A stretch of 64,000 nt of DNA, from NCBI GenBank assembly GCA_037574385.1, contig GCA_037574385.1_4529.1; one strand, written 5' to 3'. The stretch comes from a phage. Shown here piece by piece: positions 3,139-53,110 of the stretch. The position numbers were made by a program, and so were the translations under genes. The notes below the pieces were generated by a model. That model worked only from the letters and a program-made list of their open reading frames with translations, made no database searches and had not been told where the DNA came from. Numbering within the stretch: the first letter of the stretch is position 1; every line of letters starts with the position of its first letter.

Positions 3139-3468
3139 TTATACTCTAGGCTTTTGAGCTTGTTTGGTATTGGATTCCCACGCTGCTTTGGTAATTTTGT
3201 TAGCGGCATAGCCAAAGGCATTAGATAGAACACCTTTAGAGTTGAATACATCCAATCCAATAAGTACACCGGCTGCGTTAAATTTAGGAGCAAAGTACGC
3301 ATTAGTTTTAGAAAGAGCTTTTTTCAATTCAGGGTCTTGAACCAAGCCATCAAAAACGCCTTTACTATTTACTTTATATGTTACTTTGGGATTTTTACCT
3401 TCTTCGATAGCAGCTTTCTGTTCCGCAGATAATGTAACTTCAGTGATAAACTCTTGATATGTTTTCAT
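3139..3468 (-). CDS. Capsid-targeted internal protein candidate (CTS-bearing), 109 aa
   Basis: N-terminus MKTYQEFITE matches the T4 internal-protein capsid-targeting sequence (MKTYQEFIAE). Confidence 0.6.
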   Translation of the reverse strand: MKTYQEFITEVTLSAEQKAAIEEGKNPKVTYKVNSKGVFDGLVQDPELKKALSKTNAYFAPKFNAAGVLIGLDVFNSKGVLSNAFGYAANKITKAAWESNTKQAQKPRV

Positions 3469-3509
3469 ATGTTTCCTTTAAATGTAAATAGGCCTAAGTA
3501 TAGGCCTTA

Positions 3510-4088
3510 TTAATTACCACGGGCTGCATTAGCAACGGCGTAAGCGTACTGAACATTAGCGTCTTTAAACGTACCTTTAGAGGTATCTATTTCTGCCTTA
3601 AAGCCGCCTTTAGCCATAACATCGGCAAATTCTTTACGGAAAGCCATTGCGTCAAGACCTTTCCATGATGATTTATGCTTGGCAAATTCAAGACCAGCGT
3701 AGTTGACAGCTTTAGCCAATTTATTATCAATGACCCATTTACCTGCTTTAGGCACAAACTTCGGGCCTTTTTGTTTAGAGAACAGTTTTAAATTCCAGCG
3801 ACGAAGGTCACTGTCGGCTTTAACAAAAGCTGCGTCTAAGTTACTAGCAACAACATCTTCAATATGAGCAAATTTAAGACCATCAACTTCAATATTTAGA
3901 TCGTTACGCCAGCGAAGTCCTTCCCAAGCGAAGGCTTTAAAGTCGGAAGCCTTTGTAGCTAAGTACCGTTCAATAGGAGCAGTTTTAGGGTCAAAGCCGT
4001 TTCCGCCACGATAATTCCACTCGTCCTTATTAATGCCTTGGACTTTTCCTGCAAAGGCCTCGGCGATAAATTCTTTATATGTTTTCAT
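3510..4088 (-). CDS. Capsid-targeted internal protein candidate, 192 aa (size of T4 IPIII); start at internal MKTYKEFIAEA
   Basis: CTS MKTYKEFIAE preceded by RBS AAGGAAAC; ORF-track ORF extends 14 codons upstream. Confidence 0.6.
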   Translation of the reverse strand: MKTYKEFIAEAFAGKVQGINKDEWNYRGGNGFDPKTAPIERYLATKASDFKAFAWEGLRWRNDLNIEVDGLKFAHIEDVVASNLDAAFVKADSDLRRWNLKLFSKQKGPKFVPKAGKWVIDNKLAKAVNYAGLEFAKHKSSWKGLDAMAFRKEFADVMAKGGFKAEIDTSKGTFKDANVQYAYAVANAARGN

Positions 4089-4153
4089 TTTTGTTTCCTT
4101 GTTTGTTTTGATAGAGTAATTATACCCCATATTAATACTTAAGCGTAAACAAT

Positions 4154-4414
4154 TTAAGCTTTACCGCCAGAAATAATTCCGAAGTTGTTAAAATCGTATC
4201 CAATATCGTCAGCATCTACTTTAGGGCTTGCTACAACATAAGCAATTTCACGACGTTTTGCATAGGTGTTGATTTCTTTACCATCGCCACCTAAGAAAGA
4301 ATACCCATTACGTTTTAATGAGCCAAAGTCTTCGGCATCACCAACGAAAGCTTTAACTTTAAATTTGGGGTCTTTGGCATCTGCTTCAGTGATAAATTCT
4401 TGATACATTTTCAT
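4154..4414 (-). CDS. Capsid-targeted internal protein candidate, 86 aa; start at internal MKMYQEFITEA
   Basis: CTS-like N-terminus MKMYQEFITE with RBS AAGGAAAAA; immediately downstream of denV. Confidence 0.6.
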   Translation of the reverse strand: MKMYQEFITEADAKDPKFKVKAFVGDAEDFGSLKRNGYSFLGGDGKEINTYAKRREIAYVVASPKVDADDIGYDFNNFGIISGGKA

Positions 4415-4421
4415 TTTTTCC

Positions 4422-4835
4422 TTAGTAAATTGATTTACCATAGTATTTGTACCAAGTCGGACGTTGAGCAATTTTTTCATCTAAGCGTGCTTGACTTATC
4501 GCAATGGACGCTTCGGACGGGACATAATTATTACGAAATTCGGCAGGGATGTCGGAAATATCCTGGACTGTCGTGTCCTTTATTTTGAAACCACGTTTCA
4601 AACATTCAGCGATTAGCTCGATTTGACGTAAACGTAAAAATTCGAGTTTGTCATAAAAGAATGTTACGTGACCTGTGCCTAAGATAAATGTTGGAGAGAT
4701 TTTAAAATCTTTTACACGTTTACCGTTTTGGACATGTTTACGGACTGCACCAAATACGCGTGGTAATTCACGATACTCAGCCATAAGATGTTGGTCGGTC
4801 AGTTCAGAAACAAGTGTTAAATTGATACGAGTCAT
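4422..4835 (-). CDS. denV: Endonuclease V (pyrimidine-dimer DNA glycosylase/AP lyase), start at MTRINLTLV
   Basis: Near-identical over full length to T4 DenV as recalled ([12 protein letters not shown]...[10 protein letters not shown]); RBS GGAGGAAATT. Confidence 0.9.
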
Positions 4836-4863
4836 AATTTCCTCCAAGTAGTTGATAGATGTA

Positions 4864-4893
4864 TAGTATCAAAACCCTTGGAGGAAGTAAACA
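4864..4893 (-). promoter_or_regulatory. T4-type early promoter (-35 GTTTAC, N18, extended -10 TGnTACTAT) upstream of denV
   Basis: Minus-strand GTTTAC...TGATACTAT in the 58-bp gap upstream of denV. Confidence 0.5.
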
Positions 4894-5175
4894 CTATTTT
4901 TCTGAAGCGCCTGAAATATATTTTTCAAGACGTTGTTTCATCAGCGAGCCGTTCTTAGCGATTTCTTCCGGTTTATCGCACATACGCAACAAGGCTTCAA
5001 GCTTAACGATATCGCTGGTACGTTCAAATTTGCGAGTATCTATCTTACTAGCAAGTTCAGAAATACGTGCTAATAGACTTTCAGCTTCAACCAAAGCTGC
5101 ACCTAGCTTAGTTGCAAATGTGTCAGTAGCTTCGTTAAGAATAGATTCTGATAAAAATTCACTATATGTTTTCAT
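4894..5175 (-). CDS. Capsid-targeted internal protein candidate, 93 aa; start at [10 protein letters not shown]
   Basis: CTS-like N-terminus; its ATG overlaps the TGA stop of gene e (ATGA coupling); sits at the T4 ipII/ipIII position. Confidence 0.6.
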
Positions 5176-7554: not shown

Positions 7555-7860
7555 TTATTTTCCTCGGCATTCTTTAATGAAATTTTCTAGATTGGTAGAT
7601 TCAATAGCTTTTTTACGAGCTTCTGCATGTTCTTCTTCAGACAATTTACATTTATAATTAACCCAGACGTTATGGTCAAAACTAGTCGTGGCATATAATA
7701 ACAAAGCCCCGACGAATAATAAAAATGGTGATAAGAATACAAAACCAGGAACACCATCCATATTGTAAGCCTTTTGTAATACTGCAACAGAAAGAGCTGC
7801 ATAAAAAGGCGATGCAAATATTGTAAAAAGACCAATTCGGTTGGTTTCGCCTAATTTCAT
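7555..7860 (-). CDS. Hypothetical small membrane protein (101 aa)
   Basis: Two predicted TM helices; RBS GAGGAGAAT; follows an early promoter. Confidence 0.5.
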   Translation of the reverse strand: MKLGETNRIGLFTIFASPFYAALSVAVLQKAYNMDGVPGFVFLSPFLLFVGALLLYATTSFDHNVWVNYKCKLSEEEHAEARKKAIESTNLENFIKECRGK

Positions 7861-7888
7861 AATATTCTCCTCATGTTTTAATAGGACT

Positions 7889-7918
7889 ACTATAACATAG
7901 TCCTATAATTGTGTAAAC
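7889..7918 (-). promoter_or_regulatory. T4-type early promoter embedded in a 9-bp inverted repeat (PeSL-like cassette)
   Basis: Minus strand GTTTAC-N18-TGTTATAGT; -10 lies within palindrome ATAGGACTA..TAGTCCTAT; near-identical copies at ~9184 and ~15870. Confidence 0.55.
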
Positions 7919-7930
7919 GGTTTTGTGAAA

Positions 7931-8915: not shown

Positions 8916-9167
8916 TTAAATTTCACGACATGCGATATCATATTCATCCCAGAGGTCATCATGTGAAGCCTCTACCAATGGAACGATTGTACCGTTTATG
9001 TCTTCATTATAAGGACAAATTGTACAGTGCGCATCTTCGAATCGGATGCCTTTGTGTTCAGATTTTTTATAACGTATATCGAATATCTTTGCAAACTTTT
9101 CACGACTAATAGTTTTAGCAACTACTTCGGTTCCGATACTTTCGTAATAAATCATTGTGGACTCCAT
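8916..9167 (-). CDS. Hypothetical small protein (83 aa)
   Basis: ORF directly downstream of an early promoter. Confidence 0.45.
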   Translation of the reverse strand: MESTMIYYESIGTEVVAKTISREKFAKIFDIRYKKSEHKGIRFEDAHCTICPYNEDINGTIVPLVEASHDDLWDEYDIACREI

Positions 9168-9183
9168 TTAATTTGATAGGACT

Positions 9184-9213
9184 ACTATAACATAGCCCTA
9201 TCTTGTTGTAAAC
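9184..9213 (-). promoter_or_regulatory. T4-type early promoter within palindromic cassette
   Basis: GTTTAC-N18-TATAGT on minus strand; palindrome gataggactactataacatagccctatc. Confidence 0.55.
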
Positions 9214-9217
9214 TGTT

Positions 9218-9415
9218 TTAGCAAGAATAACTAGATGATACCCAGCCTTGAACAGTAATACTATTATTGGATAATGAGATCGCGTCCTGGAGATTCAGAC
9301 CTGCGTTATCTTCAATCCACAATGTAACTTCTTCGCGTTCTTCTGTTGCAATTTGGAACAGGTTTTCCAGAGCAGCTACTGCCGTACGTACAGCACAATC
9401 TAATTCACGAGACAT
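9218..9415 (-). CDS. Small protein, member 1 of a tandem paralog triplet (65 aa)
   Basis: C-terminus ...TVQGWVSSSYSC shared with the next two ORFs. Confidence 0.5.
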   Translation of the reverse strand: MSRELDCAVRTAVAALENLFQIATEEREEVTLWIEDNAGLNLQDAISLSNNSITVQGWVSSSYSC

Positions 9416-10071: not shown

Positions 10072-10101
10072 ATTATAACTAATCATTTGAGAAGCGTAAA
10101 C
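10072..10101 (-). promoter_or_regulatory. T4-type early promoter (GTTTAC-N18-TATAAT) upstream of the paralog triplet
   Basis: Consensus -35 GTTTAC and perfect -10 TATAAT on minus strand in the 10013-10110 gap. Confidence 0.55.
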
Positions 10102-11097: not shown

Positions 11098-11115
11098 GGA
11101 GGACCGGAGTCCTCC
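11098..11115 (-). terminator. Intrinsic terminator-like hairpin (GGAGGAC-UCCG-GUCCUCC + U-run)
   Basis: Perfect 7-bp stem followed by UUUU on the minus-strand transcript, just after stop of 11124..11732. Confidence 0.5.
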
Positions 11116-11123
11116 GTATTATT

Positions 11124-11732
11124 TTATTTCAAAGAGTTAATATATTCTTGTACATCAGCAGAAGTGGTTTCAACACCGGCTGGAGCGCCATTGAATGTTT
11201 CAACGCGAGTCAGAGTGTCTTCGATATCAACCTTAGTCAGTGCAGCAATTTCAATTACATCATCAGCCGTAGAGATACCAAGAGCATTGGCTGCTCGAGT
11301 TTCGCGGATGTATTCAAGTTTGATTGCCAGGTTCTGACGAGCATCGTCAAGTTCAACCACCTTACGAGCAATTTCAATTCGCATAGCGGCATACCCGTCA
11401 GCTTTTGTATTAAGTTGTTCGGCGGTTCGACGATACAGAAGTCCAAGCTTAGCATGCATGGTAACATCTTGTCCTTCAGCCAGGAGCTTACGAATTTCAC
11501 GTTCCTTAGAAGCGGCTTGCTTGTTCTTTTCATTAACAAGTTCGCGAATACGTTTTTCTTCATTAATAGATTTAATAGAAGCCGTTTTTAGTTCTTTGAT
11601 TTGGGTAATCAACTTATCTGCGGCTGCGTTATACTGTTCTTCGACAGTCAGATTTTTAGCCATAGCAGTACCCAGTTTAGTGCGAATGAATTCAACAAGT
11701 TTCTTCAGTGTGTTCATATTATTACCTTTCAA
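11124..11732 (-). CDS. Coiled-coil protein, possibly PspA/IM30-like (202 aa)
   Basis: Highly charged heptad-rich sequence ([43 protein letters not shown]); fold assignment is a guess. Confidence 0.45.
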
Positions 11733-11787
11733 TTGGTGGTTTATTATCCAACGAGAGCATTATACTCTGCTCTCAAGAGTTTGTAAA

Positions 11788-12015
11788 TTATTTTTTAATC
11801 AAATTGACATAAAACTTGGCGTCTTCTGGGTGCATGCCTTCGCAATATTCTTCAACCATGAACTTCTTAACAGCTTCATAAGGACCACTCAGATTAAGCT
11901 CAGTTGTCCAGAACTTGGAATCTTGGACTGAATCGATACGAACTTCAGGGTGTCGGTTGCGAATAACTTCTTCGGTGTATTCATAATCAACGACATCAAT
12001 ACTAACTTTAGCCAT
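11788..12015 (-). CDS. Hypothetical small protein (75 aa)
   Basis: ORF with RBS GAGGAGAAA preceded by the promoter/5'UTR module also found at ~48620. Confidence 0.45.
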   Translation of the reverse strand: MAKVSIDVVDYEYTEEVIRNRHPEVRIDSVQDSKFWTTELNLSGPYEAVKKFMVEEYCEGMHPEDAKFYVNLIKK

Positions 12016-12044
12016 TTTGTTTCTCCTCTGTAGTTGATAAGTCT

Positions 12045-12074
12045 ATAGTATCACCATCCTTGGTGTTTGTACAT
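12045..12074 (-). promoter_or_regulatory. Early-promoter-like element (TGATACTAT extended -10; divergent -35)
   Basis: About 30 bp identical to the cassette upstream of 48344..48613 (gtagttgataagtctatagtatcac). Confidence 0.4.
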
Positions 12075-12082
12075 CATTATTT

Positions 12083-12388
12083 TTAATTTTTCCAACTTAA
12101 CAACTTGTAGTGTCCTTCATTCGTACGAGGTTTATCCCAAGAAATACTAATATATGATTCACTGTCAATAGAAGTCGCCGGGTTTTTCTCTACCGTAAGA
12201 CCTTCACTTTCCAGCCATTCAATAGTGTTTGCGCATAAATCTGAAGAACACCTCATCGGAAACTGGCAAGATTTTTCACCTTTAGCTGCAGCATTATACA
12301 TCTTTTCTAAAATACGCTTTTGCACGTTTTTAAAAATAGTTTCAGCAGATTCTTCAGATTTTTTATTCAGTTCAGTGTAAAGACTCAT
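12083..12388 (-). CDS. Hypothetical small protein (101 aa; start at MSLYTEL with SD GAGGAG)
   Basis: ORF; ORF-track ORF extends 9 codons upstream. Confidence 0.45.
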   Translation of the reverse strand: MSLYTELNKKSEESAETIFKNVQKRILEKMYNAAAKGEKSCQFPMRCSSDLCANTIEWLESEGLTVEKNPATSIDSESYISISWDKPRTNEGHYKLLSWKN

Positions 12389-12445
12389 AATATTCTCCTC
12401 ATTAATAGGGCTCATAATATCTCAATCATAAGCCCATGTACGCAT

Positions 12446-12721
12446 TTATTTCATATTATCGAAATATTCTTCAGCGATTTCGACATTATCATGGTAAACT
12501 TTAGAAGACAGTTTAACATAACCTTCTGCTGCGAACATATTAATCACAACCTTTACAGTATACCATTGTCCGTCTTCATTACCCATTACTGCGTAAGTTT
12601 CAAACATCGGATGGTCAGGTCCAATAACTTTAATATCATTCACCGTACGTCCGAAATCTTCTGGAATGCATTTCATAAAGAAGTTGAACAGTTCACCGTA
12701 ATTATCCATTTCATTCTCCAA
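12446..12721 (-). CDS. Hypothetical small protein (91 aa)
   Basis: ORF downstream of an early promoter. Confidence 0.45.
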   Translation of the reverse strand: MENEMDNYGELFNFFMKCIPEDFGRTVNDIKVIGPDHPMFETYAVMGNEDGQWYTVKVVINMFAAEGYVKLSSKVYHDNVEIAEEYFDNMK

Positions 12722-12751
12722 GGTTTTTCTGTATCGGTAGTTGATAGTTGT

Positions 12752-12781
12752 ATAGTACCACGGAAGAACAGGGATGTAAAC
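12752..12781 (-). promoter_or_regulatory. T4-type early promoter (GTTTAC-N18-TACTAT)
   Basis: Minus-strand motif; same cassette family as ~4864 and ~48644. Confidence 0.5.
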
Positions 12782-12883
12782 AGTTTTGTGAAAAAAATTT
12801 TTAAAAAGTTTTGGGGAATTCTAGGACAGGGAGAGGAAAGGCCTAGATACCAAAAAGCCCTATCTAAATGATAGGGCTTAAAA

Positions 12884-15646: not shown

Positions 15647-15853
15647 TTACTCACCTTTTGCAATTTTATCCATAACGATAGCGATTAAGCCGATTAGAAA
15701 TGCTACTACCAATGAGATAGAATTTTCGGTTGTTGTCAGTAGTCCACAAATGAATCCTACAAACATCGAAAAACTAAAAGCCATTGAAGCAATTACTACA
15801 GCAACATTACGAATCAGTTCAGCGCGTTTCATTTTATTTCTCCATTTACTCAT
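15647..15853 (-). CDS. Hypothetical small membrane protein (68 aa)
   Basis: Two hydrophobic helices; follows an early promoter. Confidence 0.45.
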   Translation of the reverse strand: MSKWRNKMKRAELIRNVAVVIASMAFSFSMFVGFICGLLTTTENSISLVVAFLIGLIAIVMDKIAKGE

Positions 15854-15869
15854 TTCGTTTTGATAGGAC

Positions 15870-15899
15870 TACTATAACATAGTCCTATCAGCATGTAAA
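15870..15899 (-). promoter_or_regulatory. T4-type early promoter within palindromic cassette
   Basis: GTTTAC-N18-TATAGT; palindrome gataggactactataacatagtcctatc, identical to the copy at ~7881. Confidence 0.55.
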
Positions 15900-15903
15900 C
15901 TAC

Positions 15904-16191
15904 TTACAGAAGAGTTTTTGCAATAATTTTAAGCTGAGCTACAGAAATATGCTTAGCTTTAAACAGTGCAGTCTCTTCAGCCGGAGAGATAACAATAGTA
16001 GCGCCGTCTTTCTTAGCAGACCATCCATCCCCTAAGTAAACAGTACCTTTTACTTCTTCGCCATCAACCAGACTAATCATTGGTTTACCCTCACGTCCTT
16101 TATTTGCTTTAATAACTTCAGAAGTAAGGGTTGCTTCGGTCAGAGTAGAAACGTTAGCAACAGGTGATATAAATTCTTTATAGGTTTTCAT
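15904..16191 (-). CDS. ipI: Internal protein I (IPI-like; in T4 an inhibitor of GmrSD type IV restriction)
   Basis: 95 aa, CTS MKTYKEFIS; central region matches recalled T4 IPI (SEVIKANKG.EGKPMISLVDGEE.KGTVYLGDGWSAKKDGATIVISPAEETALF); beside 57B as in T4. Confidence 0.75.
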   Translation of the reverse strand: MKTYKEFISPVANVSTLTEATLTSEVIKANKGREGKPMISLVDGEEVKGTVYLGDGWSAKKDGATIVISPAEETALFKAKHISVAQLKIIAKTLL

Positions 16192-16225
16192 TTTATTTCC
16201 TTGAGGTTGTTTATTTGATAGGATG

Positions 16226-16255
16226 ATAGTATCACACCATCATCCTTATGTAAAC
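16226..16255 (-). promoter_or_regulatory. T4-type early promoter upstream of ipI
   Basis: GTTTAC-N18-TACTAT; variant palindrome ggatgat..atcatcc. Confidence 0.5.
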
Positions 16256-16268
16256 TGTTTTGTGAAAA

Positions 16269-48343: not shown

Positions 48344-48613
48344 TTATTTCTGGGCAATTTCGATGTAAGTTTTCAAAATATTTTGCCAATTAGGCATACC
48401 TTCTTGGACATATGCTGGAGAACCGTCTTTGTTTTTGAATGATGCAAGTTTATCAGTGGCCCAATAGCCTTTAGCTCGAGCTTCAGAATCAACTTTCATC
48501 CATACTTTGTTGAAGGCATTACCATTAACTTTTGCACCATATTTTTCTACTAACTTAACCGCTTCAGCTTCCAGAACTTTTAAAGTATCTCGTAAGAAAC
48601 GTGCTTTAGTCAT
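48344..48613 (-). CDS. Hypothetical small protein (89 aa) at the T4 segD position between genes 23 and 24
   Basis: Minus-strand ORF with RBS GAGGAG and its own early promoter; not homing-endonuclease-like. Confidence 0.5.
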   Translation of the reverse strand: MTKARFLRDTLKVLEAEAVKLVEKYGAKVNGNAFNKVWMKVDSEARAKGYWATDKLASFKNKDGSPAYVQEGMPNWQNILKTYIEIAQK

Positions 48614-48643
48614 TTTGTTTACTCCTCTGTAGTTGATAAGTCT

Positions 48644-48673
48644 ATAGTATCACATACCAAATACGTTGTAAAC
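48644..48673 (-). promoter_or_regulatory. T4-type early promoter (GTTTAC-N18-TGATACTAT) for the 89-aa gene
   Basis: Same ~30-bp promoter/5'UTR module as at ~12030. Confidence 0.5.
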
Positions 48674-48679
48674 AATCTT

Positions 48680-48687
48680 TATAAATA
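48680..48687 (+). promoter_or_regulatory. T4 late promoter TATAAATA for gene 24
   Basis: Exact TATAAATA 26 bp upstream of gene 24 start. Confidence 0.55.
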
Positions 48688-51694: not shown

Positions 51695-53110
51695 TTATGG
51701 ATATGTATAAATGATACCAGTTTCTAGCGCAGTTTTATGGATGATGTATCCATTACGTGATTCTTGAACATCAACTTCTGGATAGTCTTTCATCATCTTC
51801 TGAAGAGTGTAACGATGCAGGTAGTATTTACTATCTGGATCGTCAATTTTCCAATCTTTACCTTCTTCAGTCATTTTTTGGATTTCATCCATAACCCACC
51901 AACCACACCAGATGTAAGCTGAAGTACGGTGTGGAAGAGGATGAACATAAGGTAGTTCACCTTCTGGTTCAATTGGAGTCCGTTCAGCAATAACAACTTC
52001 AGCGGTTGAACTAATTGTCTTTGAAGTATAGTTATCTTTAGTTAATACTGCTTCAACTTTAATTGTATGAGTACCAGCTGAGGAGGTATCAATACTGTAA
52101 GTATTAGTAGAATTACTTTCTGCTACGTTGTCTTTCTTCCAAGAATACACAATATTAGTATCACCTGGAGCACCAGTAACAGATGCTGTTAAAGTTGCAG
52201 TTCCACCAACAGTAGTATTAACTGATGGCGGAGATAAAGAAATGGTGGCACTATTAAATGTCGCATTATTAGTTACTACTGTTGCTTCTGCTGAAATTTC
52301 TTTTGTAACATAATTTGTTGCAGAAACAGATACGGTGCATTTAAGAGTTTTACTTCCTACCTCGGTTGGAGTGAATTTATACGTAGCAGAAGTTGCATCC
52401 GGAATATTACTGTCATCCATTGACCACTGGAATGATGTAGTAGCACCTGAAGGTGCACCAGAGACATTTGCAGTTAAAGTAATAGGAACACCAAAGACTG
52501 TAGTCGGAGACTCAGGCGTAATTTTTAGTGTTGAAGAATTAGCCTTTTTATTTACAGTCAAAGAAACCGCTGATGATTCTACTGTTTTATCAACGTAATC
52601 AGTTGCAGTCACTGTGACGGAGCAAGTTATAGACTTAGTTCCTTCAGATGTTGGTGTATATTCAAAGGTTGATTGCTTTTGACCATCAACAGCGACCCCG
52701 TCAACTTTCCATGTATAAGCAATAGCAGCACCACTAGGTTGATTGCTTACATTAGCAGTGAATGTTGTTGCTGTTCCAATTTCTACTGCAGCCGGAGAAG
52801 CCGGAGTAACAGCGACGGTAGAATTATTTTCTTTCTTATTAACAGTGATAGTTGTTGATGCTTCAGCTATTTCCGGATCTCCTGCGGAAAGTGTATTAGT
52901 TGCAACCACTTTAATTTTTTTTGTTCCTGCCGGAGAAGCAAGAGTATAATCCATTGTAGCAGCCGTAGACTCCTGTGCTATATCATCTACAGTCCAGACG
53001 TATGTAATAGTACCATCTGGAGTTTCACCTGCAGGTGTAGCAGTGAATGTTTGTGAACCTCCAATAACCCCTGTAGGAGTTAAAGGAGATAATGTGACAG
53101 TGAATGTCAT
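51695..53110 (-). CDS. hoc: Hoc (highly immunogenic outer capsid protein) with four tandem Ig-like repeats
   Basis: 471 aa; four ~95-aa Thr/Ser-rich repeats (e.g. TANVSNQPSGAAIAYTWKVDG..., TANVSGAPSGATTSFQWSMDD...) plus C-terminal capsid-binding domain. Confidence 0.8.
   Translation of the reverse strand: MTFTVTLSPLTPTGVIGGSQTFTATPAGETPDGTITYVWTVDDIAQESTAATMDYTLASPAGTKKIKVVATNTLSAGDPEIAEASTTITVNKKENNSTVAVTPASPAAVEIGTATTFTANVSNQPSGAAIAYTWKVDGVAVDGQKQSTFEYTPTSEGTKSITCSVTVTATDYVDKTVESSAVSLTVNKKANSSTLKITPESPTTVFGVPITLTANVSGAPSGATTSFQWSMDDSNIPDATSATYKFTPTEVGSKTLKCTVSVSATNYVTKEISAEATVVTNNATFNSATISLSPPSVNTTVGGTATLTASVTGAPGDTNIVYSWKKDNVAESNSTNTYSIDTSSAGTHTIKVEAVLTKDNYTSKTISSTAEVVIAERTPIEPEGELPYVHPLPHRTSAYIWCGWWVMDEIQKMTEEGKDWKIDDPDSKYYLHRYTLQKMMKDYPEVDVQESRNGYIIHKTALETGIIYTYP

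Follow-up and report, generated by a model that had tools for sequence, protein, structure and literature searches.

Among the closest described relatives of the elements analysed here are the PeSLs of phages RB49 and phi1, composed of an AT-rich region, an early promoter, a stem-loop and a Shine-Dalgarno (SD) sequence (Arbiol 2010, PMC2839356). In the same study the commonest stem-loops were located between the promoter boxes or overlapped the -10, and promoter activity, terminator activity and mini-circles were shown. PeSLs were later extended to T4/PST and KVP40/nt-1 (Comeau 2014, PMC4122927). Elements of T-even internal-protein (IP) loci, with T4 early promoters and weaker AT-rich stems, were described in Repoila 1994, as reported in Arbiol 2010 (PMC2839356), where it was also proposed that such elements might restrict shuffling to the IP loci. 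For RB69, early promoters were predicted by Nolan et al. 2006 (PMC1524935, Additional file 3), where they are treated as promoters only. For e, soc, 49 and I-TevI of T4, the ribosome-binding site is masked in long transcripts but not in the RNA from an internal promoter (PMC3014915). RNA structure also shields GGAG sites from RegB.

The window, i.e. the whole stretch of phage DNA that was analysed (64,000 nucleotides; GenBank assembly GCA_037574385.1, contig GCA_037574385.1_4529.1; positions are given with the prefix w), matches RB69-like coliphages of the genus Mosigvirus over the full length of w4000-17000 with 95-97% identity, the top matches being phiC120 (97.4%) and RB69 (96.4%). Judged by this similarity, the window is an RB69-like (T4-type) Mosigvirus genome. 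The early genes are located on the minus strand (vs.6, then denV, e, nudE, e.2-e.8, two tRNAs and ipI, up to 57B), and after the early block the late structural genes occupy the plus strand. The matches to Rfam were limited to two tRNAs. The repeated cassettes of the early region are best explained, with a probability of about 0.85, as RB69-like early promoters with dyads, the copies of which would enable shuffling of the kind described for PeSLs and IP loci.

The window contains 10 matches to the motif GTTTAC-N18-TAnnnT, and each is on the minus strand (10/10); the number expected from dinucleotide shuffles is 1.15 +/- 1.05 (10 or more matches in 0/100 shuffles). A downstream motif that the preliminary description had not named, TAnnnT-N5-TATCAA, shows 8 matches vs 2.0 expected, all of them on the minus strand and at cassettes (8/8 in both respects). 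Eight of the nine copies listed previously are exact, with the low coordinates of the -10 at 4863, 7889, 9184, 10072, 12752, 15871, 16226 and 48644, but the ninth (12045) has the degenerate -35 ATGTAC. Relaxed regular expressions and inspection of breakpoints added copies that had been overlooked, at w4150, w11788 and w12443, and a half-cassette hairpin at w3490-3507, while a weight matrix built from eight sites, and overfitted, gained only the degenerate w12074 copy. Eleven sites and the half-copy are placed within w3450-16270, between vs.8 and 57B; one more cassette is found in the islet between genes 23 and 24, and a site at w51521 lies within the gene 24.3 homologue. The motif search of the window gave no cassettes in the late structural block (~w20000-48000).

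The candidate cassettes are as follows, with distances and arms read on the minus strand:

3451..3507, minus strand: half-cassette; hairpin AGGCCTA-TACT-TAGGCCT 3490-3507, no -35 element; then SD and the internal-protein leader MKTYQEFITE, ATG 3468.
4088..4162, minus strand: P4150, upstream of an IPIII-like gene (MKTYKEFIAE); GTTTAC 4145-4150, 20-nt spacer, TATAAT 4119-4124, then TATCAA; RB69 Pe:64193.
4835..4904, minus strand: P4892, upstream of denV; -35 4887-4892, -10 4863-4868, ATG 4835; anti-SD arm CCTCCAAG 4877-4884 in the spacer, SD arm CTTGGAGG 4841-4848; fold -19.0 kcal/mol, z -4.3.
7860..7930, minus strand: P7918, the focal cassette, family A; -35 GTTTAC 7913-7918, -10 TATAGT 7889-7894; 5' arm ATAGGACTA 7898-7906, 3' arm TAGTCCTAT 7881-7889; A-rich upstream TTTCACAAAACC; downstream SD GAGGAG and ATG 7860 of a 101-aa ORF, homologue of RB69ORF133c; hairpin -12.7 kcal/mol, z -4.7; RB69 Pe:67959.
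9155..9225, minus strand: P9213, family A; -35 9208-9213, -10 9184-9189, ATG 9155 (79 aa); 5' arm ATAGGGCTA 9193-9201 (one G.U pair), 3' arm 9176-9184; sense fold -16.0, antisense -8.9 kcal/mol; RB69 Pe:69254.
10072..10101, minus strand: P10101, weak and atypical; GTTTAC-N18-TATAAT without TGn, TATCAA or hairpin.
11717..11800, minus strand: P11788, upstream of e.6; ATTTAC 11783-11788; arms GAGAGC 11769-11774 and GCTCTC 11753-11758 flank TATAAT 11759-11764; RB69 Pe:72069.
12005..12074, minus strand: P12074, family B, upstream of frd.3; degenerate -35 ATGTAC, -10 12045-12050.
12388..12455, minus strand: P12443; -35 GCGTAC 12438-12443, -10 TATTAT 12414-12419, ATG 12388; arms GGGCTTATGAT 12425-12435 and ATTATGAGCCC 12408-12418 (two G.U pairs); RB69 Pe:72936.
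12709..12793, minus strand: P12781, upstream of e.8; family B-like start region TATCAACTAC, no significant hairpin; T4 counterpart nearly identical; RB69 Pe:73274.
15832..15912, minus strand: P15900, family A, upstream of the trna.4 homologue; -35 15895-15900, -10 15871-15876, inverted repeat 15862-15889, ATG 15832; -17.7 kcal/mol, z -6.6; RB69 Pe:76459.
16169..16267, minus strand: P16255, upstream of an internal-protein gene (MKTYKEFI...); -35 16250-16255, -10 16226-16231; arms AGGATGAT 16239-16246 and ATCATCCT 16220-16227; ATG 16191.
48613..48685, minus strand: P48673, family B; 89-aa ORF downstream; RB69 Pe:109605.

Read along the minus strand from w7918 to w7881, the focal cassette is GTTTAC ACAATT ATAGGACTA TGTTATAG TAGTCCTAT. 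The spacer of 18 bp given previously holds when counted from GTTTAC, but it is 17 bp from the conventional TTTACA, the -10 being of the extended TGn type. For family A, the perfect 9-bp inverted repeat is present at 7881-7906, with a loop of 8 nt; the copy at 9176-9201 is nearly identical, as had been noted, but carries one A>G change resulting in a G.U pair, and the third copy, again perfect, lies at 15863-15888 rather than at 15861. The ~30 bp said to be shared within family B are found as described: the 25-mer of the preliminary description occupies 12030-12054 and 48629-48653, within an exact stretch of 32 nt (12023-12054 is identical to 48622-48653), and the alignment, with 48/50 positions identical, extends into the first codons. 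P48673 sits in a small minus-strand islet between the late genes 23 and 24.

By their sequence the elements are predicted to be T4-type early promoters. The consensus features are an A-rich upstream region, GTTTAC(a), a 17-bp spacer, a TGn extended -10 and TAnnnT, and the full set is found at w4892, 7918, 9213, 12781, 15900, 16255 and 48673. The fit is partial at w4150 (20-nt spacer), 11788 (ATTTAC), 12074 (ATGTAC), 12443 (GCGTAC) and 10101 (no TGn). Three copies have TTTCACAAAAC as their A-rich upstream stretch. The sites are all on the minus strand, 25-45 nt 5' of an SD and ATG, and each corresponds in position to a homologous entry in the RB69 early-promoter predictions of Nolan et al. 2006 (Pe:64193, 64934, 67959, 69254, 70143, 72069, 72354/72567, 72936, 73274, 76459, 76812/77187, 109605 and 112451). 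The homologue of the atypical P10101, Pe:70143, has a score of only 4.9 in the RB69 promoter list (Nolan et al. 2006, PMC1524935). T4 bears the same cassettes upstream of ipI, trna.4, e.8, e.7, denV, ipII and ipIII; the T4 GenBank record holds no promoter features, and a literature search on T4 transcription-start mapping returned nothing usable for the cassette sites. In the complete Mosigvirus genome mar005p1, 47/51 occurrences of GTTTAC-N17-19-TAnnnT are on the minus (early) strand, and this holds without exception for those that precede an SD and an ORF (40/40). The repeated cassettes reported in the preliminary description are confirmed, and their interpretation is supported, the early-promoter identity by the T4 early consensus, the co-orientation with early genes and the RB69 and T4 homologues. 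The adjoining genes, called unknown ORFs in the preliminary description, are not orphans: all ten neighbouring ORFs scanned belong to PHROG families, albeit of unknown function, and the 318-aa ORF upstream of the P7918 cassette is common to other T4-like genera.

Within the 60 nt after the -35, folding stronger than in shuffled sequences was observed at 6/12 window sites (P4892, P7918, P9213, P12443, P15900 and P16255; z from -3.3 to -5.6). The family B-type copies (w12074, 12781 and 48673) have no significant stem, each being a promoter without the stem-loop part. In the family A-type layout the 5' arm is located in the promoter spacer and the 3' arm runs from the last bases of the -10 to ~+2. 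On the scale of the mar005p1 genome, complementarity between the spacer and the downstream sequence is significant at p<0.01 in 12/40 Mosigvirus early promoters (0.4 expected) and at p<0.05 in 16/40. Two classes of dyads can be distinguished. In the first (family A type) the 3' arm is placed at -8 to +2, whereas in the second (SD type) an anti-SD (TTCTCC...) directly after the -35 is complementary to the downstream SD, with 14 perfect pairs in two examples (TTCTCCTCTAGTTG/CAACTAGAGGAGAA and TTCTCCAGTAGTTG/CAACTACTGGAGAA). The denV cassette of the window is of the SD type (CCTCCAAG/CTTGGAGG), and the T4 denV cassette has CTCCTGTA/TACAGGAG in the matching place.

The isolated hairpins have energies from -12.7 to -17.7 kcal/mol (z from -4.6 to -6.6) and are intergenic, just past the stop codon of the upstream gene, as would be expected if they were intrinsic terminators or attenuators of upstream transcription, a function described for PeSLs; in a reporter assay, one of the PeSL stem-loops of RB49/phi1 was as effective a terminator as rrnB T1 (Arbiol 2010, PMC2839356). 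The stems of the window are nevertheless AT-rich, unlike the tested G/C stems of RB49, and the sequences that follow them (UAAAACA, CAAAUUAAA, CAAAACGAAA) are A-rich and do not contain a U-tract. A terminator scan omits the cassette stems, yet it calls true terminator-like hairpins in the vicinity, at w12855-12879, 11098-11115 and 1704-1731, and the ARNold terminators annotated in PhAPEC2 are located elsewhere. Canonical termination was rejected because of the missing U-tract, and a terminator or attenuator role in general appears rather improbable. The hairpin data speak against canonical termination and, for a subset of the hairpins, in favour of a structure that hides the ribosome-binding site in read-through RNA.

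The arms were compared cassette by cassette, and covariation by columns of a fixed alignment was dropped because the hairpin register varies among copies. The arms are GGACT/AGTCC in family A of the window and GGGT/ACCC in T4 trna.4; in other T4-like contigs they are GGGCT/AGCCC, GGTCT/AGACC and GGGTA/TACCC. In the ipI locus GGATG/CATCC of the window corresponds to TGATGAGGTA/TACCTCATCA of T4, and in the e.7 position GGGCTTATGAT/ATTATGAGCCC corresponds to AGGCTnATGAT/ATTATGAGCCT. The 5' arm follows the variable bases at -6 to -2, which amounts to covariation. The contigs came from a scan of viral contigs for GTTTAC-N18-TAnnnT-N5-TATCAA, in which at least about a dozen T4-like loci were useful and most of the listed matches were from unrelated contigs. 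In 5/5 sense/antisense pairs the sense strand gives the more stable fold (-12.7/-10.9, -16.0/-8.9, -17.7/-15.7, -15.4/-10.1 and -15.6/-7.1 kcal/mol), although the three copies of family A do not count as independent evidence on this bias. Among the significant stems genome-wide there are 18 wobble pairs of the sense type vs 7 of the antisense type. This strand bias points to a structure in the sense strand, as RNA or DNA, rather than to a protein site in the duplex.

The same data bear on the possibility that a dimeric protein of the phage or the host binds the inverted repeat as a DNA operator and so controls these early promoters, or that the repeat forms a cruciform exposing the -10. Each genome has 3-4 identical or almost identical copies of the 26-bp family A element, which is nearly the same in Acj61 and overlaps the -10, the classic position of a repressor. 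In the other cassettes, however, the complementarity is kept while the arm sequences are unrelated, and arms that vary yet remain complementary fit a structure and not a sequence-specific protein. In addition, G.U pairs are tolerated on the sense strand only, the antisense hairpin is weaker by 1.8-8.5 kcal/mol, and the same arms are found in T4 and TH12 with the position of the 5' arm in the spacer differing by 6 nt. Short arms (5-12 bp) separated by loops of 3-28 nt are ill suited to cruciform formation, which counts against the second variant. Both variants were rejected on the arm variability and the strand asymmetry, and we consider them very improbable.

The 51-nt family A cassette matches 415 phage records, and a single Mosigvirus genome has 6-10 such places. 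A nearly identical cassette, GATAGGACTATGTTATAATGGTCCTATCAAAAC, is found in the Acinetobacter phage Acj61, which belongs to another subfamily. We attribute this likeness to a shared constraint, imposed by the extended -10, the start region and the complement of these, and transfer could also account for it.

Breakpoints were located by local BLAST of the window against seven closely related Mosigvirus genomes; they recur, and many of them are inside cassettes, though some breakpoints in database genomes may be artefacts as short repeats can cause assembly errors, and the records of Av-05, phiC120 and phiE142 have odd lengths. For 48 gene junctions, in RB69 coordinates and with the independent promoter list of Nolan, a breakpoint is present at 9/13 promoter junctions vs 10/35 others (odds ratio 5.6, one-sided Fisher p=0.013, the two ends of one indel not being independent in this test). 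Promoter zones comprise 9.3% of the region and include 9/26 breakpoint clusters (p=4e-4). The breakpoints away from promoters are at terminators, tRNAs, a homing endonuclease and internal-protein leaders. The association between cassettes and breakpoints is real but moderate. The link with gene-content variation suggested in the preliminary description is borne out by the junction test, but P4892 and P9213 show no breakpoint among the genomes examined.

Several of the breakpoints are defined at the sequence level. At w12009-12045 (P12074) a 37-bp direct repeat is found in RB69 on either side of the extra ORF145c, and at w16169-16223 (P16255) a 55-bp direct repeat in RB69 is on either side of an extra internal-protein gene. 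At w4060-4095 (P4150) the overlap is 36 bp long and falls within the 5' UTR and leader of the IPIII-like gene. The breakpoint at w3477, in the half-cassette, is present in 4/7 relatives; those at w12402-12419 (P12443) are seen in TH12 and mar005p1; a replacement in TH12 begins at w15843/15858 (P15900); and breakpoints at w12835-12839 are ~55 nt upstream of P12781. P10101 is at a deletion junction, the relatives having ~250 bp of e.3 between w10101 and w10113. At the focal P7918 site, ~268 extra bases are present in JK45 and at least seven other genomes; the JK45 insert consists of a 66-aa ORF and its own cassette (arms GGTCT/AGACC), and the junction is exactly on the -35 hexamer, w7912-7918. 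In the Av-05 record, the assembly of which is doubtful, an internal-protein gene is joined to the family A repeat at w7907.

It could be argued that the promoters are real and their role in recombination is illusory, since indels favour gene boundaries anyway and the likeness of the copies is that of a promoter consensus. The breakpoints at promoter-free junctions (10/35) and their absence from P4892 and P9213 agree with this, as does nearly the same 33 nt in the distant Acj61, and the shared extended -10, TATCAA start region and SD are plausibly constrained by expression. Against it, direct repeats of the cassettes bound several indels (the 37 bp, the 55 bp and the -35 hexamer of JK45), which is the signature of crossing-over between copies, the enrichment of breakpoints over other junctions is significant, and for RB49 and phi1 the circular products of such exchanges were recovered (Arbiol 2010, PMC2839356). 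An illusory role is therefore judged unlikely.

In the preferred reading, that of early promoters with dyads and exchangeable copies, the homology to RB69 and T4 suggests that host sigma-70 RNA polymerase would use the cassettes right after infection, probably starting at the A of the conserved TATCAA, and that each promoter would drive one or few small minus-strand early genes. In about half of the copies the spacer holds the complement of the sequence just past the -10, and in the second class the complement of the downstream SD. The 5' arm being upstream of the start, the hairpin would form only in RNA begun at an upstream promoter, and the cassette's own transcripts would be without it. 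In the SD class, by analogy, the hairpin may silence downstream translation on the read-through RNA. SD masking does not explain the role of the family A hairpin, which leaves the SD accessible; here an intercistronic barrier or a 3' stabiliser on the read-through RNA seems more likely. As the copies share 30-55 bp, near-identical and in direct orientation, phage recombination can cross over between them, and such an event would presumably delete, duplicate or swap the intervening genes.

A broader proposal is that the dyads are a general design of T4-type early units, in which read-through RNA would be marked by hairpins, the small genes would be translated, or exposed to RegB at GGAG, mainly from their own promoter, and the cassettes would be insulated, the Acj61 likeness then being a shared constraint. 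Neighbouring cassettes insulated from each other would be freely exchangeable modules. We put this forward tentatively, as a possibility with the odds somewhat against it.

The analysis adds one more T4-type lineage, with simple statistics, in which early-promoter cassettes mark the sites of gain and loss of small accessory genes. In annotation, the cassettes can flag likely early transcription units and exchangeable modules, and they are also a warning for assembly, because repeats of 30-55 bp can mislead short-read assemblers. The finding opens no new question; of some interest is the role of the hairpin in RNA.

In comparison with the known systems, the T-even elements of Repoila, as far as they are outlined in Arbiol 2010, are like those of the window in GTTTAC, TGn and the -10, and in having weak, AT-rich stems of differing size that surround the promoter. 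The outline also names the same loci, w15900 and w16255 being in the ipI locus and w3490-4150 in the ipII/ipIII locus. The IP genes bear a conserved MKTYxEFI leader, and the extra IP genes of relatives are flanked by the repeated cassette and leader. Unlike in the IP-only picture, the cassettes of the window also flank the homologues of RB69 ORF133c-135c, e.6, e.7, e.8, frd.3, denV and the 23-24 islet. The analogy with PeSLs drawn in the preliminary description is apt, a stem-loop overlapping the -10 being among the commonest PeSL layouts (Arbiol 2010), and it extends to the composite layout, the hyperplastic regions beside small genes of unknown function and the indels between close relatives. 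The PeSLs of RB49/phi1 have near-perfect sigma-70 promoters (TTGACA) and G-rich/C-rich terminating stems, whereas the window has a T4-type promoter and AT-rich stems without a U-tract. In T4/PST the PeSL stems are drawn just upstream of the promoter, while those of the window bracket the -10 or span from the spacer to the SD.

With respect to T4 e, soc, 49 and I-TevI, a similar arrangement is seen in the denV cassette (w4841-4884) and in 6-10 other early promoters of a Mosigvirus genome. In the T4 cases, however, the internal promoter is late or middle and the effect is temporal, whereas in the window the promoter is early and the anti-SD is in its spacer; the family A hairpin, unlike the T4 masked sites, leaves the SD uncovered. 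The RB69 sites of Nolan et al. 2006 are positional homologues of those in the window, and they are treated there as promoters, apparently with no mention of dyads, sequence families or recombination. As the homologous RB69 promoters had been listed and the PeSL and T-even elements described before, this kind of element is already known, and the finding is its correct recognition in the window rather than a new type of element.

Relative to most of the relatives examined, the window lacks ~250 bp, comprising most of gene e.3, at w10101-10113 (the segment is carried by RB69, ChristianSchoenbein, PhAPEC2, phiEC1, and mar005p1), and this deletion is common to the window, phiC120, and TH12. The GTTTAC of P10101, a weak promoter-like site, adjoins the deletion junction. 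Two adjacent small ORFs of 90 and 101 aa (w9425-9697 and w9707-10012, respectively) both match the C-terminal part of a single PHROG family, phrog_899 (221 aa); they look like either tandem paralogues or pieces of one longer gene.

Recurrent breakpoints among the relatives (indel ends in the BLAST comparisons) also coincide with terminator-like hairpins and, at a further place, with tRNA genes, the number of which differs among relatives (three are annotated in PhAPEC2):

w13529-13568, terminator-like hairpin
w12855-12879, terminator-like hairpin with a U-tract
w12835-12879, breakpoint region including the U-tract hairpin
w14243-14396, two tRNA genes

The left end of the window (w1-1982) is E. 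coli chromosome. The host genes yfiE-eamB-grcA show 100% identity to w1-1936, where the GC content is 0.485 vs about 0.37 in the remaining window, while the match to phage relatives begins at w1745 and continues onward. The switch from host to phage is located within grcA/vs.6, where the final 237 bp of host grcA share 90% identity with vs.6 of Mosigvirus. The junction reflects either true recombination between host and phage, or a chimeric assembly joined via this shared stretch.

Escherichia phage Av-05 (NC_025830), 121 kb in length and filed under Vequintavirinae, includes at record positions 1-2008 a stretch 99% identical to the Mosigvirus region of the window, which stops precisely at w7907, where the family A repeat lies. 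Unusual record lengths are also found for phiC120 (186.6 kb) and phiE142 (121.4 kb). All three may be chimeric assemblies, with the joins possibly made wrongly at the cassette repeats.

The family A cassette matches 8 places in the genome of Acinetobacter phage Acj61 (GU911519), where the 33-nt core, GATAGGACTATGTTATAATGGTCCTATCAAAAC, is near-identical to that of the window; Acj61 belongs to a different subfamily (Twarogvirinae):

GU911519 3003-3050, family A-like cassette
GU911519 5627-5675, family A-like cassette

In mar005p1, six to ten of the 40 early promoters carry an anti-Shine-Dalgarno (anti-SD) sequence (TTCTCC...) directly after the -35 element, which pairs with the downstream gene's SD (as many as 14 perfect pairs):

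mar005p1 record positions 52464, 10961, 49226, 167016, and 11395, examples of anti-SD promoters
w4841-4884, anti-SD promoter in the window (denV cassette)

Since the anti-SD pairs with the SD, the downstream gene should be untranslatable from read-through RNA, unlike from promoter-proximal RNA, which, as predicted from these pairings, should be translatable. In the reviews consulted, such SD masking is described only for late or middle promoters (T4 genes e, soc, 49, and I-TevI), whereas the Mosigvirus subset consists of early promoters.
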